DNA of 24,000 nt. It comes from Duganella sp. BJB476 (lineage in GTDB: Bacteria > Pseudomonadota > Gammaproteobacteria > Burkholderiales > Burkholderiaceae_D). The stretch covers positions 824-24,823 of the forward strand of contig NZ_QVIO01000011.1 in NCBI RefSeq assembly GCF_003416895.1, written 5' to 3'. Both the position numbers and the translations under genes were made by a program. Every line of letters begins with the position of its first letter. Position 1 is the first letter of the stretch. A model generated the notes under the pieces. The model had not been told where the DNA came from and did not search any database. It was given only the letters and a program-made list of their open reading frames with translations. Of this stretch, positions 7,780-14,033 are shown in pieces.

Positions 7780-8184
7780 ATGGATACCTCACTTCCCTGG
7801 GTGGCTGTAGTAGACGACGACGACGCGATACGGCGCGCGCTGCTGCGCCTGCTGCGTTCCAGCGGCATCGCCGCGCAAGCGTTTGCCGGCGGCGCCGACT
7901 TCCTGGCCGCGCTCGACGGCGGCCATCCGTGCTGCGTGGTGCTGGACGTGCACATGCCGGGCCTGTCCGGGCTGGAGGTGCAGGCGCGGCTGGCCGCGCT
8001 GGCGCCCGAGGTCGGCGTCATCATCCTCACCGGCCACCCGACTCCGGCCGAACAGGCGCAGGCGCAACAACACCGGCCGCTGGCCTACCTGAGCAAACCC
8101 GTCAACGATCAACTGTTACTGGACACCATCAGCCTGGCCTGCGGCCAGTCGGCGGCGCCCTTCACCGGAGGCCCACGGCCATGA
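7780..8184 (+). CDS. Single-domain response regulator (REC only)
   Basis: 134 aa. Motifs VAVVDDDD, VVLDVHMPGLSG, IILTGH and LSKP show that all phospho-acceptor pocket residues are present. There is no output domain. Confidence 0.85.
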   Translation: MDTSLPWVAVVDDDDAIRRALLRLLRSSGIAAQAFAGGADFLAALDGGHPCCVVLDVHMPGLSGLEVQARLAALAPEVGVIILTGHPTPAEQAQAQQHRPLAYLSKPVNDQLLLDTISLACGQSAAPFTGGPRP

Positions 8185-12240: not shown

Positions 12241-14033
12241 ACGCGCACCGCCGGTGGTGGCGACAACGACTGCGGCTGTACCGGCTGCCGCTGGCCTGCC
12301 TGCTGCTGGCCGTCCTGCTGGGCGCGATCTACGCGCGCAGCCTCAGCTACGACAGCAACGACTACTTCGCCAACGTCGCGCTGCTGCGGCAAGTCGGCCA
12401 GCTTGACGCGCAATGGGAACTCGACGCGATGAAGTCGCGCATCGGCCTGAACCCGAGCTACGACGCGCTGGCCCATCCGCTGGAGGCCATGCACGAGCTG
12501 CCCTTGCAGATCAAGGCGTCGTCGCCGCAATTGGCCGCCGCGCTGGACGCCTACCAGGAGACCCTGAGCGCGAAGGCGGCGCTGATGGAGGCATTCAAGT
12601 CGCACAACGCGGTGCTGCACAATTCGCTGGACTTCCTGCCCGTCGCCGCCGACGACATCGGCGCTCCAGTCAACCTGCAGCGCGGCCACCGGCTGGAGGC
12701 GATGGGTCATGCGGAGGCGGCCGCCCACCGCCTGCTGCTGGCCTTGCTGATCTACAGCGACGGTCCTTCCGAGAGCGGCGTCGCCGAGGTCGAACGGGAG
12801 CTGGCCGCCCTGGAGGCCTCCCGCGCCGGCCTGTCCGGCGAGCTGGCCGAGCGCATCGACACCATGAGCGCGCACGCGCGCACCGTGCTGGTCGAACAGG
12901 CCGCGGTCGACCGGCTGCTGACCGGCATTGCGGCGGCCCCCACCGACGAAAGCATCGACGCCATCAGCGCCCTGCTGGGCCAGCAACAACAACTGGCGAT
13001 GCAGCGCCTGCATGCCTACCGCTACGGGCTGATACTGCTGGCCGCGCTGCTGGTCGGGCTGCTGGCCTACACCGCGCTGCGGCTGCTGCGCAGCCACGCC
13101 ACGGTCCAGCGCGTCAACGCCGAACTGAAGACCGCCAATGACCACCTCGAAGGCCGGGTGCAGGAACGCACCGCCGAACTGCTGCAAGCGAACCAGCGCT
13201 TGCAGCAGGAGATGGCCGAGCGCAAGGCCCTGCAAAGCCGGCTGGTGCAGTCGGAGAAGCTGGCCTCGATCGGCCAGCTGGCGGCCGGCGTGGCGCACGA
13301 GATCAACAACCCGCTGGCCTTCCTGGCCTCCAACTTCGGCACGCTGGAGGACTACCTGGACAAGCTGTTCGAGCTGCTGGGCGCCTACGAGCAAGCCGAG
13401 CCCGGCGCCGCCTCGCACGAGGCGGTGGCACGCTCCCGCAGCCGGGTCGACCTGGCCTACCTGAAGCAAGACATTCCGGCGCTGGTGGCCGAATCGCGCG
13501 GCGGCATGGAGCGGGTCGGCAAGATCGTGCAGGACCTGAAACAGTTTTCGCGCGTGGAAGCCACCCAGGACTGGGAGTGGGCCGACCTGCGCACCGGCCT
13601 GCAATCGACGCTCAACCTGATCGGCGGCGACCTGGAAGCGGTGGCCGACATCCAGACCGAATTCGGCCCGATGCTGGAAATCGAATGCATGCCGTCGCAG
13701 CTGAACCAGGTGTTCCTGCACCTGCTGCAAAACGCCGCCCAGGCCATCGGCCCCGAGCGCGGCCGCATCACCGTGCGCTGCGGCAGCGCAGGCTCCGAGG
13801 TCTGGCTGGAAGTCAGCGACACCGGCGGCGGCATCGCCGCCGAAGCGCTGCCGCGCATCTTCGATCCCTTCTACACCACCCGGCCGATCGGCAAGGGCAC
13901 CGGGCTGGGGCTGTCGCTCTCCTACGGCATCGTGCAAAACCACTACGGCCGCATCGACGTGCAGAGCACGCCGGGCCGGGGCAGCACCTTCCGCGTGACG
14001 CTGCCGGTCAGCCACCGCATGGCCCAGGCCTAG
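12237..14033 (+). CDS. Membrane histidine kinase: TM, ~230-aa all-helical periplasmic domain (DAHL- or four-helix-bundle-like by eye), TM, coiled coil, HisKA, HATPase
   Basis: The real start is the internal ATG at 12237, which overlaps the CCP stop as ATGA; 598 aa. TM1 is LPLACLLLAVLLGAIYA and TM2 is YGLILLAALLVGLLAYTAL. H-box: AAGVAHEINNPLAF (His at 13296-13298). The kinase core is closely similar to that of the 10339 gene. Confidence 0.85.
   Translation: MNAHRRWWRQRLRLYRLPLACLLLAVLLGAIYARSLSYDSNDYFANVALLRQVGQLDAQWELDAMKSRIGLNPSYDALAHPLEAMHELPLQIKASSPQLAAALDAYQETLSAKAALMEAFKSHNAVLHNSLDFLPVAADDIGAPVNLQRGHRLEAMGHAEAAAHRLLLALLIYSDGPSESGVAEVERELAALEASRAGLSGELAERIDTMSAHARTVLVEQAAVDRLLTGIAAAPTDESIDAISALLGQQQQLAMQRLHAYRYGLILLAALLVGLLAYTALRLLRSHATVQRVNAELKTANDHLEGRVQERTAELLQANQRLQQEMAERKALQSRLVQSEKLASIGQLAAGVAHEINNPLAFLASNFGTLEDYLDKLFELLGAYEQAEPGAASHEAVARSRSRVDLAYLKQDIPALVAESRGGMERVGKIVQDLKQFSRVEATQDWEWADLRTGLQSTLNLIGGDLEAVADIQTEFGPMLEIECMPSQLNQVFLHLLQNAAQAIGPERGRITVRCGSAGSEVWLEVSDTGGGIAAEALPRIFDPFYTTRPIGKGTGLGLSLSYGIVQNHYGRIDVQSTPGRGSTFRVTLPVSHRMAQA

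Follow-up and report, generated by a model that had tools for sequence, protein, structure and literature searches.

A periplasmic peroxidase encoded among kinase, receiver, and c-di-GMP phosphodiesterase genes raises the question of what such an enzyme does in a signalling pathway. One such arrangement is found in Duganella sp. BJB476, in a 24,000-nucleotide stretch of contig NZ_QVIO01000011.1 that was analysed as a whole (the window). The nearest species genome is that of Duganella rhizosphaerae R64. To our knowledge, the sensing of periplasmic H2O2 or redox state in Gram-negative bacteria, ahead of the cytoplasmic regulators OxyR or PerR, is poorly understood. The original prediction, made from the letters of the window, was that the haem protein is the input module of a five-gene cassette with c-di-GMP hydrolysis as its output. 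The analysis described here inclines us, by a modest lean, to the reading that the peroxidase is a periplasmic peroxide/redox co-sensor for transducers with a DAHL domain, and that in this locus it would feed c-di-GMP control.

Organization of the locus and its signalling proteins

Five + strand genes occupy positions 7780-14033 (Table 1). The first three encode a single-domain receiver (REC), a REC-GNDEF-EAL-REC protein, and a sensorless kinase; the fourth encodes a di-haem cytochrome c peroxidase (CCP) and the fifth a two-TM kinase. The four junctions are, in order, an ATGA overlap, 1 nt, 18 nt, and a second ATGA overlap. The REC stop overlaps the ATG at 8181 (ATGA, 8181-8184). The next gene carries GGGAGG at 10328-10333 and a TGA stop at 10335-10337, and it is followed by an ATG at 10339. 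The sensorless kinase gene ends at 11259, and AGGAG at 11267-11271 precedes the CCP start codon at 11278. An ATGA at 12237-12240 contains both the CCP stop and the start codon (12237) of the two-TM kinase gene, which ends at 14033. Open reading frames and overlaps are exactly as originally described. The accompanying claim that the genes leave no room for promoters or terminators also held, as a sequence scan of the + strand of 7780-14033 found no promoter-like or terminator-like site. The overlaps, the gaps of at most 18 nt, and the site-free strand are consistent with one transcript for the five genes.

Table 1. Genes of the cluster and its neighbours, by position in the window
Product	Position	Strand	Basis
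dCache-PAS histidine kinase	4918-7101	+	Pfam; upstream neighbour
FixJ/LuxR-type response regulator	7098-7712	+	Pfam; 68-nt gap before REC at 7780
Single-domain receiver (REC), 134 aa	7780-8184	+	Pfam Response_reg 2.9e-21
REC-GNDEF-EAL-REC response regulator, 718 aa	8181-10337	+	Pfam EAL 1.3e-75, GGDEF 3.3e-35, two Response_reg
Cytoplasmic sensorless histidine kinase, 306 aa	10339-11259	+	Pfam: HisKA and HATPase_c only
Exported di-haem cytochrome c peroxidase (CCP), 320 aa	11278-12240	+	Pfam CCP_MauG 4.5e-56
Two-TM histidine kinase with periplasmic DAHL, 598 aa	12237-14033	+	Pfam DAHL 9.4e-48, HisKA, HATPase_c
PAS-GGDEF diguanylate cyclase	14116-15105	+	Pfam GGDEF 4.8e-49, PAS_4; downstream

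In Oxalobacteraceae, the cluster keeps the two upstream neighbours in this order (loci L005-L007, L050, and L086). Downstream, the PAS-GGDEF cyclase has a GGEEF motif and an RxxD I-site and is a probable associated member of the cluster. Its gene is also found downstream in Duganella loci and in one Rhodocyclaceae locus among the matches listed in a survey that started from the CCP. A TATAAT at 14061-14066, within the 82-nt gap ahead of the cyclase gene, points to a promoter that this gene possibly has of its own.

The single REC contains the acidic pocket, Asp, Thr, and Lys, as read from its sequence. In the 718-aa protein the GGDEF domain is degenerate and reads GNDEF in place of the GG(D/E)EF of active cyclases. 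The EAL domain of this protein matches the Pfam model over the full length of the domain (254 bits), and the EAL motif, the catalytic Asn, EVTE, DDFGTGYSS, KID, EGVE, and QG are all present. The protein is likely to be a c-di-GMP phosphodiesterase output. Its C-terminal REC shares 43% identity with the REC of a Pseudomonas REC-HD-GYP cluster protein and 37% with a Comamonas cluster REC protein. A related REC lineage recurs on an EAL protein here, on an HD-GYP protein in Pseudomonas, and on a REC protein in Comamonas. This REC also resembles a NosR-family REC, with an NCBIfam score of 199 bits that lies under the cut-off of 400. The sensorless kinase is 50% identical to the core of the DAHL kinase over 265 aa and, on this sequence measure, is a paralogue of that core. 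Pseudomonas clusters also contain a second kinase, which is fused there to a receiver-like N-terminus. The idea that the stand-alone REC and the short kinase are the halves of a split Pseudomonas REC-kinase is unsupported, because no relationship between the REC and the receiver-like N-terminus could be detected.

The CCP-DAHL gene pair in other bacteria

Gene neighbourhoods were compared in two surveys, with the 80 best matches retained out of 594 in one and out of 267 in the other. Among the matches listed in the CCP-first survey, a DAHL gene lies directly downstream on the same strand in 84/84 loci, which come from Duganella, Massilia, Polaromonas, Comamonas, ~55 Pseudomonas species, and others. 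The DAHL-first survey covered metagenomes with a search motif drawn from CCP-linked proteins, and a CCP gene is directly upstream in all 79 of the informative loci among the matches listed. Word-indexed DAHL searches, by domain or by alignment, returned few proteins (6 per query), probably as a result of Ala/Leu-rich words. A full HMMER scan followed, and a CCP gene is directly upstream of 6/8 distant DAHL representatives with 25-36% identity. An adjacent CCP is absent from two DAHL-GGDEF proteins (L173 and L174) and from VirA. Altogether, the pair was found in ~170 bacterial loci, which are not independent because the surveys took best matches only and Pseudomonas species dominate them. The DAHL start codon and the CCP stop share a 4-nt overlap in 139/160 loci, and the spacing is between -20 and +30 nt in 159/160, again among the matches listed.

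The adjacency in 84/84 and 79/79 loci, usually with overlapping genes and in both Beta- and Gammaproteobacteria, supports the proposal of a functional link between the CCP and the two-TM kinase. Because the pair spans these two groups, it is not restricted to one lineage; such a restriction had been named in advance as an outcome that would speak against the proposal. Two of the initial assumptions need revision. Di-haem CCPs had been regarded as atypical internal cistrons of signalling operons, but within this CCP clade such a position is the rule. The five-gene cassette is present here, but it is not widely conserved, since the five-gene form occurs in only ~9 loci among the matches listed (in Duganella, Massilia, Pseudorhodoferax, Stagnimonas, and two metagenome contigs) as opposed to ~170 for the pair. 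Judged by gene neighbourhood, the conserved unit is a two-gene CCP and DAHL module and not the cassette.

The cytoplasmic outputs attached to the DAHL domain are varied and include kinases, hybrid kinases with REC/Hpt, GGDEF-EAL(-REC) proteins, some of them direct DAHL-GGDEF-EAL fusions, and MCPsignal chemoreceptors. The CCP-DAHL pair persists through these swaps of transmitter, which assigns the function common to these systems to the periplasm. Genes for EAL and/or HD-GYP proteins lie within ~6 kb in 76/104 loci and are not found nearby in 28/104 (among the matches listed). The predicted output, c-di-GMP hydrolysis, is borne out insofar as phosphodiesterases are the commonest linked output, but it does not extend to the chemoreceptors, the hybrid kinases, or those 28 loci.

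Properties and proposed roles of the two proteins

The CCP matches Pfam PF03150 (CCP_MauG) with 190 bits (cut-off 25.6). As read from the translation, its hydrophobic N-terminus with an AxA site qualifies as a signal peptide. The haem motifs are CASCH (aa 65-69, nt 11470-11484) and CVACH (aa 208-212, nt 11899-11913). The solved CCPs 9qdt, 1iqc, and 3o5c share ~50% identity with the protein, and all three align with it at W108 (inter-haem), M288 (E-haem ligand), E128 and Q118 (P haem), and N93 (Ca site). Family and fold-defining residues are common to this protein and canonical di-haem CCPs (P. aeruginosa CcpA, N. europaea 1iqc, S. oneidensis CcpA 3o5c, and 9qdt). A clade alignment of 160 members, reached through the best-match surveys, has both CxxCH motifs, W108, H274, and M288 in 160/160 and Q118 with E128 in 158/160. 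The distal His has been lost. Its position is Phe85 (nt 11530-11532) in the Duganella protein and His in 1iqc and 3o5c, and across the clade it is F/L/I/V/M/A/W/Q, with His in 0/160. 9qdt likewise lacks this residue. The protein thus falls outside the reductively activated bCCP subclass (P. aeruginosa/Paracoccus type), which is defined by a distal His on a mobile loop. Nine invariant, clade-specific residues set the clade apart from canonical CCPs, and unlike the genes of the latter, its genes are always coupled to a DAHL transducer among the loci surveyed.

The DAHL domain comprises aa 39-262 of the two-TM kinase (nt 12351-13022), lies between the two TM helices, and matches Pfam PF19443 with 163 bits against a gathering score of 38. 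The helical periplasmic domain foreseen for this kinase can now be named, and an AlphaFold2 model of aa 29-279 is helical throughout (pLDDT 94.5). The closest folds to the model are the McpS HBM domain (TM 0.55-0.58) and the TorS sensor (TM 0.52), and a TorT-bound TorS sensor is among the nearest solved folds. In the clade a His is invariant, Tyr, Lys, and Asn positions are nearly so, and the alignment contains no conserved Trp or Cys. A set of residues (D, YD, K, FKS, NS, P, and the invariant His) was considered as a CCP-contact signature and rejected, as most of it also occurs in CCP-less DAHL proteins. The suggestion that the invariant His stands in for the distal His that the CCP lacks was dropped as well, since the residue is also present without an adjacent CCP. 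The two DAHL-GGDEF proteins that lack an adjacent CCP retain it, together with 11/12 (P0248) and 8/12 (P0201) of the conserved DAHL residues. No contact signature was identified, because such proteins keep most of these residues.

A similar gene adjacency, judged by gene order and annotation, exists in C. jejuni. According to PMC3156733, docA (Cj0020c, a putative CCP gene) is directly upstream of docB/Tlp10 and is associated with a colonisation defect and with no role in H2O2 resistance. The sensor of Tlp10 is the founding DAHL domain, and Tlp10 is described as binding multiple small ligands directly (PMC9796306 and PMC9303924). The output of Tlp10 is chemotaxis, in contrast to the kinase and c-di-GMP output here. 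Two further CCP and DAHL-MCP pairs were found, each with a 4-nt overlap. In the literature searched, DocA and Tlp10 are studied separately, with no functional link between them, and no paper describes the CCP-DAHL pairing. A Leptospira PerR paper that names both CCP and MCPs is unrelated to it. The view that no cassette of this kind has been characterised is upheld for the pairing, but docA-docB is a partial precedent.

Other systems resemble the locus in logic. The VirA domain is a DAHL domain by Pfam (E 4e-38), and it differs from the clade here by lacking the FKS..NS motif and the invariant His. The known partner of VirA is ChvE, and chvE is not adjacent to virA. In ChvE/VirA and TorT/TorS, an all-helical bimodular periplasmic sensor reads a separate periplasmic protein, as proposed here, whereas the partner in those systems has a sugar- or TMAO-binding periplasmic binding-protein fold and here is a two-c-haem redox enzyme. 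By analogy, VirA and TorS suggest a precedent for the use of periplasmic partners by DAHL-type and related all-helical sensors. The H-NOX/HnoK/HnoB-HnoD and NosP/NahK systems also encode a separate haem protein beside a kinase, with REC-EAL/REC-HD-GYP outputs. Their sensors are cytoplasmic b-haem NO binders, unlike a periplasmic c-haem peroxidase with a transmembrane kinase. The parallel with H-NOX/HnoK/HnoB drawn originally survives as pathway logic only, but not in composition, as Pfam and NCBIfam detect no H-NOX or NosP domain in the eight genes of the locus. In Orp1/Gpx3-Yap1 and Tpx1-Pap1, a peroxidase captures H2O2 and hands the information to a signalling protein. The likeness is one of concept, since those systems use cytosolic thiol chemistry and share no homology with the periplasmic haem and membrane transducers considered here.

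The CCP could also be a plain periplasmic H2O2 detoxifier, expressed together with the signalling genes or under their control and thus a passenger or a protective output, with the DAHL domain sensing something else. Both haem sites and the catalytic residues are fully kept, which would fit an ordinary enzyme equally well, as would the ~50% identity to true peroxidases and the direct small-molecule binding reported for Tlp10. We nevertheless regard this explanation as unlikely. Most of the clusters surveyed are without a DNA-binding regulator able to make the CCP an output, and the pair survives swaps to chemoreceptors and GGDEF-EAL fusions, both of which are without transcriptional output. 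The position of the CCP upstream of the sensor, with the translational coupling seen in the 139 loci, and the reported lack of a part for DocA in H2O2 resistance argue in the same direction.

Two further explanations accept a link with the DAHL domain and differ in its nature. MauG/MbnH-family enzymes are CCP homologues with genes adjoining those of their protein substrates, and a CCP of this type might use H2O2 or O2 to modify a DAHL residue, maturing the sensor or switching it irreversibly. NCBIfam similarity to both enzymes is detectable, a distal His is missing at the peroxidatic haem here and in MauG alike, and the DAHL clade offers the conserved His, Tyr, Lys, and Asn noted above. The similarity scores are far under the cut-offs, however (175 vs 363 bits for MbnH, TIGR04039; 163 vs 444 for MauG, TIGR03791), the second haem has the CCP-type Met ligand in 160/160 members where MauG has Tyr, and the nearest relatives are genuine peroxidases (E 1e-69 to 1e-76, compared with 1e-26 for MauG). 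With no conserved Trp or Cys in the DAHL domain, such a modification has a slim chance of being the function of the pair. The CCP might instead sense NO, sulfide, the O2-linked redox state of the cytochrome pool, or electron flux, still acting through the DAHL domain. An open five-coordinate haem could bind other small ligands, and the electron-transfer haem would register how reduced the periplasmic cytochrome pool is. The electron donors of canonical CCPs dock at the electron-transfer haem domain, and the clade-specific, invariant Q213, N216, N220, and F225 neighbour the second CxxCH (C208-H212) in the sequence. A signal other than peroxide nevertheless appears quite improbable to us, since Glu128 and Gln118 serve peroxide chemistry and their retention in 158/160 members would be needless in a pure ligand sensor.

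Proposed signalling route and its meaning

From support that is comparative throughout, and of the guilt-by-association kind, we infer the physical contact, the H2O2/redox signal, the direction of regulation, and the receiver that is phosphorylated in the following scheme for the peroxide/redox co-sensor. The core would consist of two partners, a di-haem CCP secreted into the periplasm and a transducer in the membrane. The DAHL domain of the transducer, a double four-helix bundle on the periplasmic side, would receive the state of the CCP. After export, the CCP would mature by acquiring two c-haems. The peroxidatic haem is without the distal His ligand and may therefore be open to H2O2 without reductive activation. 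The periplasmic cytochrome pool would set the poise of the Met/His electron-transfer haem. The CCP would be altered when it reacts with H2O2 or when its reduction state shifts, and the DAHL domain would read this alteration through protein-protein contact and relay it across the membrane to the kinase. In the Duganella locus, the DAHL kinase, its sensorless paralogue, and the single REC would lead to phosphorylation of REC-GNDEF-EAL-REC, and the resulting change in c-di-GMP hydrolysis would influence the choice between motility and biofilm.

The adjacency of the two genes suggests that CCP and DAHL may be an undescribed peroxide/redox sensing pair. A broader claim, to which we give somewhat less than an even chance, is that a His-less CCP and a DAHL domain form a widespread, unrecognised module for H2O2 or cytochrome-pool redox that is plugged into every major bacterial output, from two-component kinases and phosphorelays to chemoreceptors and c-di-GMP enzymes. 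If that is true, this would be the first bacterial peroxidase to form the subunit that captures the signal for a transmembrane receptor. Many CCP genes now annotated as detoxification would gain a testable function, and Pseudomonas fluorescens-group strains offer a setting in which so small a pair is readily studied by genetics. C. jejuni DocA, with its unexplained colonisation phenotype, would become a co-sensor of Tlp10, giving a new reading of docA/docB. Oxidative signals would be tied to biofilm, motility, and chemotaxis in soil- and plant-associated Pseudomonas, Duganella, and Comamonas, and the question of how Gram-negative bacteria sense H2O2 or redox stress in the periplasm would be answered directly by a receptor coupled to a peroxidase.

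Linkage of the CCP and DAHL genes

The exported di-haem cytochrome c peroxidase (CCP) and the two-TM histidine kinase with a periplasmic DAHL domain belong to a conserved gene pair. A scan of the CCP alignment against one genome per species returned 594 relatives. In all of the best 80 of these, and in four further inspected loci, a DAHL-domain gene lies immediately downstream on the same strand. The loci come from Duganella, Massilia, Polaromonas, Pseudorhodoferax, Comamonas, Diaphorobacter, Rhizobacter, Roseateles, Rhodocyclaceae, Stagnimonas and about 55 Pseudomonas species. 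A DAHL-first survey, based on the DAHL alignment, the motif FKSxNAVLRN and a metagenome scan, yielded 267 relatives; a CCP gene is directly upstream in all 79 loci with room upstream among the best 80. In 139 of 160 loci there is a 4-nt overlap between the CCP stop and a DAHL start codon; in 159 the distance between the two is between -20 and +30 nt. A full HMMER scan with the window DAHL domain gave 987 cluster representatives (E <= 1e-3), of which eight distant ones (25-36% identity) were inspected. Six have a CCP_MauG gene upstream with a 4-nt overlap; two of the six are chemoreceptors, two are shorter kinases (one cut by a contig end) and the rest are large hybrid kinases. No upstream CCP gene was found for the other two, both short DAHL-GGDEF proteins.

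The original idea of a sensing system built into a five-gene cassette is supported in part. The CCP-DAHL adjacency recurs (84/84 and 79/79 loci), but the five-gene order of the window is found in only about nine loci. The focus must move from the cassette to the two-gene CCP-DAHL module.

The locus in the window

All five plus-strand genes and the four junctions proposed earlier were borne out by ORF listing and direct reading. The REC gene and the gene for the REC-GGDEF-EAL-REC (EAL) protein overlap by ATGA at 8181-8184. The latter ends in TGA (10335-10337), with GGGAGG at 10328-10333, and the sensorless short kinase starts with ATG at 10339. An 18-nt gap containing AGGAG (11267-11271) precedes the CCP ATG at 11278, and ATGA at 12237-12240 joins the CCP to the DAHL kinase. 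The translated EAL protein has GNDEF in place of GGDEF and retains intact EAL motifs. A sequence scan found no terminator-like or promoter-like sites on the plus strand inside the block, and one transcript is plausible on this reading.

Features of the window around the CCP-DAHL pair
Feature	Position	Strand	Remark
CAP/SCP-domain protein	2831-3793	+	overlaps Hpt gene
Stand-alone Hpt phosphotransfer protein	3790-4356	+	
dCache-PAS kinase and FixJ-type regulator	4918-7712	+	upstream of five-gene block
REC	7780-8184	+	Pfam Response_reg
REC-GGDEF-EAL-REC	8181-10337	+	Pfam
HisKA-HATPase_c kinase without sensor domain	10339-11259	+	Pfam
CCP_MauG protein	11278-12240	+	Pfam
DAHL-HisKA-HATPase_c kinase	12237-14033	+	Pfam
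PAS-GGDEF cyclase, GGEEF and I-site	14116-15105	+	downstream of five-gene block
Sugar-use block	15286-20951		unrelated

The neighbourhood is wider than these five genes, with signalling genes both upstream and downstream. Between the DAHL kinase stop and the PAS-GGDEF gene are 82 nt (14034-14115) with a GC-rich stretch directly after the stop and an exact TATAAT at 14061-14066, and the cyclase gene may have its own promoter. About 560 nt separate the CAP/SCP and Hpt gene pair from the dCache kinase gene downstream. Given the many kinases and receivers beside it, the orphan Hpt may be part of the same phosphorelay. The best NCBIfam match of both the short kinase and the DAHL kinase is NF038348 "T2SS_HK" (263 and 301 bits, below the cut-off of 450); no type II secretion genes lie near either. 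The sugar-use block encodes a short-chain dehydrogenase, a GH2 beta-galactosidase (992 aa), a DUF386 protein and an amino-acid permease. The G+C content of the window is about 69% and falls to about 60% around 19-20 kb.

Properties of the CCP and the DAHL domain

By sequence, the CCP truly belongs to the bacterial di-haem CCPs. Its identity is about 50% to the solved enzymes 9qdt, 1iqc (N. europaea) and 3o5c (S. oneidensis) (E 1e-69 to 1e-76), and 93% to its counterpart in Duganella rhizosphaerae R64, the nearest species genome. Both CxxCH motifs are present, as are the Met ligand, the inter-haem Trp and the catalytic Glu and Gln; in the "IGH" loop, Phe stands at the distal-His position. Among 160 orthologues taken from the surveyed loci, both CxxCH, the Trp, His274 and Met288 are retained in all, and the Gln and Glu in 158. 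At the distal-His position every member except one has a hydrophobic residue, and none has His (106 F, 26 L, 12 I, 8 V, 4 M, 2 A, 1 W, 1 Q). Nine invariant residues are specific to the clade, and Q213, N216, N220 and F225 lie beside the second CxxCH. Because the haem-site residues are kept and the distal His is absent, the CCP looks chemically competent toward H2O2, with an open peroxidatic haem.

The AlphaFold2 model of DAHL kinase residues 29-279 is all-helical and of high confidence (pLDDT 94.5). Its closest solved folds are the bimodular ligand-binding domain of McpS and the sensor domain of TorS, including TorS-TorT complexes. A DAHL domain is also present in VirA of the A. fabrum C58 Ti plasmid (Pfam E 4e-38). 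VirA senses sugars via the periplasmic protein ChvE and therefore sets a precedent in this domain class for sensing via a periplasmic partner. The conserved residues of the CCP-linked DAHL clade, an invariant His plus D, YD, K, FKS, NS and P, are lacking in VirA. We rejected this residue set as a CCP-contact signature, since the two short DAHL-GGDEF proteins of about 500 aa (L173 4001-5506 and L174 356-1906) have no CCP gene upstream and keep most of it, including the His (11/12 and 8/12 positions). A poly(A) polymerase-family gene precedes one, and an unrelated 90-aa ORF the other. These proteins either use a CCP encoded elsewhere or sense without one.

Outputs and proposed mode of sensing

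The periplasmic pair is constant, whereas the cytoplasmic transmitter varies. Transmitters include MCPs, plain kinases, kinase-REC(-REC/Hpt) hybrids, long-linker kinases of about 890 aa, and fusions of the DAHL-GGDEF-EAL and DAHL-GGDEF-EAL-REC types. Among 65 diverse representatives, 49 have HATPase_c, eight GGDEF, five EAL, four MCPsignal, one a nucleotide cyclase domain and one SpoIIE. Of the 104 loci whose flanks were long enough, 76 have an EAL and/or HD-GYP gene at a distance of about 6 kb or less. The Pseudomonas cluster differs from that of the window and encodes REC-HD-GYP (opposite strand), REC-PAS-GGDEF-EAL, REC-GGDEF-EAL, CCP, DAHL kinase and REC-kinase. The C-terminal REC of the window EAL protein shares 43% identity with the REC of the Pseudomonas HD-GYP protein and 37% with the Comamonas REC protein, and the short kinase shares 50% with the DAHL-kinase core; these identities suggest a common phosphotransfer lineage.

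Related loci have further features. In Pseudomonas sp. 2FE (L002 5745-7696), the pair is closely preceded by a CCP_MauG fragment of 73 aa and by a kinase carrying a Tll0287-like domain. This domain is a c-haem-binding PAS-like sensor, and the cluster would then hold two haem-linked kinases. In Pseudomonas fluorescens PS723 (L025 5622-14176), the N-terminal 190-210 residues of the REC-PAS-GGDEF-EAL, REC-GGDEF-EAL and REC-kinase proteins are mutually 52-60% identical, and the Pfam receiver match is weak and partial in all three. A single input module seems to have been duplicated here, which could let one kinase address three outputs. In Comamonas/Rhizobacter-type clusters (L036 12873-13814; equivalents in L039, L056, L063, L068, L076 and L080-L084), the DAHL kinase is followed by a protein of about 315 aa with one clear receiver domain, a degenerate receiver-like second half and no recognisable output domain.

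Only the gene structure, the domain identities and the conserved linkage are shown directly; all else is inferred. On the simplest reading, the CCP would capture the signal as one subunit of a periplasmic receptor, and the DAHL domain would read the CCP. The signal is likely H2O2, or the balance of H2O2 against reductant from the cytochrome pool, and the likely output at the window's locus is c-di-GMP hydrolysis, as originally predicted. Three other readings are less well supported. The CCP could simply be a detoxifying enzyme of the usual kind, co-expressed with the signalling genes, or a sensor of a ligand other than peroxide. It could also be a MauG-like modifier of the DAHL domain, but it is distant from MauG (E 1e-26) and scores well under the NCBIfam cut-offs for MbnH and MauG.

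The nearest precedent for a CCP gene upstream of a DAHL transducer gene is C. jejuni docA-docB. In one report, docA, a putative CCP gene directly upstream of docB/Tlp10, does not contribute to H2O2 resistance, and its loss lowers chick colonisation (PMC3156733). According to two further papers, the DAHL family was defined on the Tlp10 sensor domain, which is reported to bind several small ligands directly (PMC9796306, PMC9303924). In the literature searched by full text, no paper connects a CCP with a DAHL domain or any other sensor domain. The CCP-DAHL module is widespread and apparently undescribed, and it would be a new form of partner-protein-dependent sensing.
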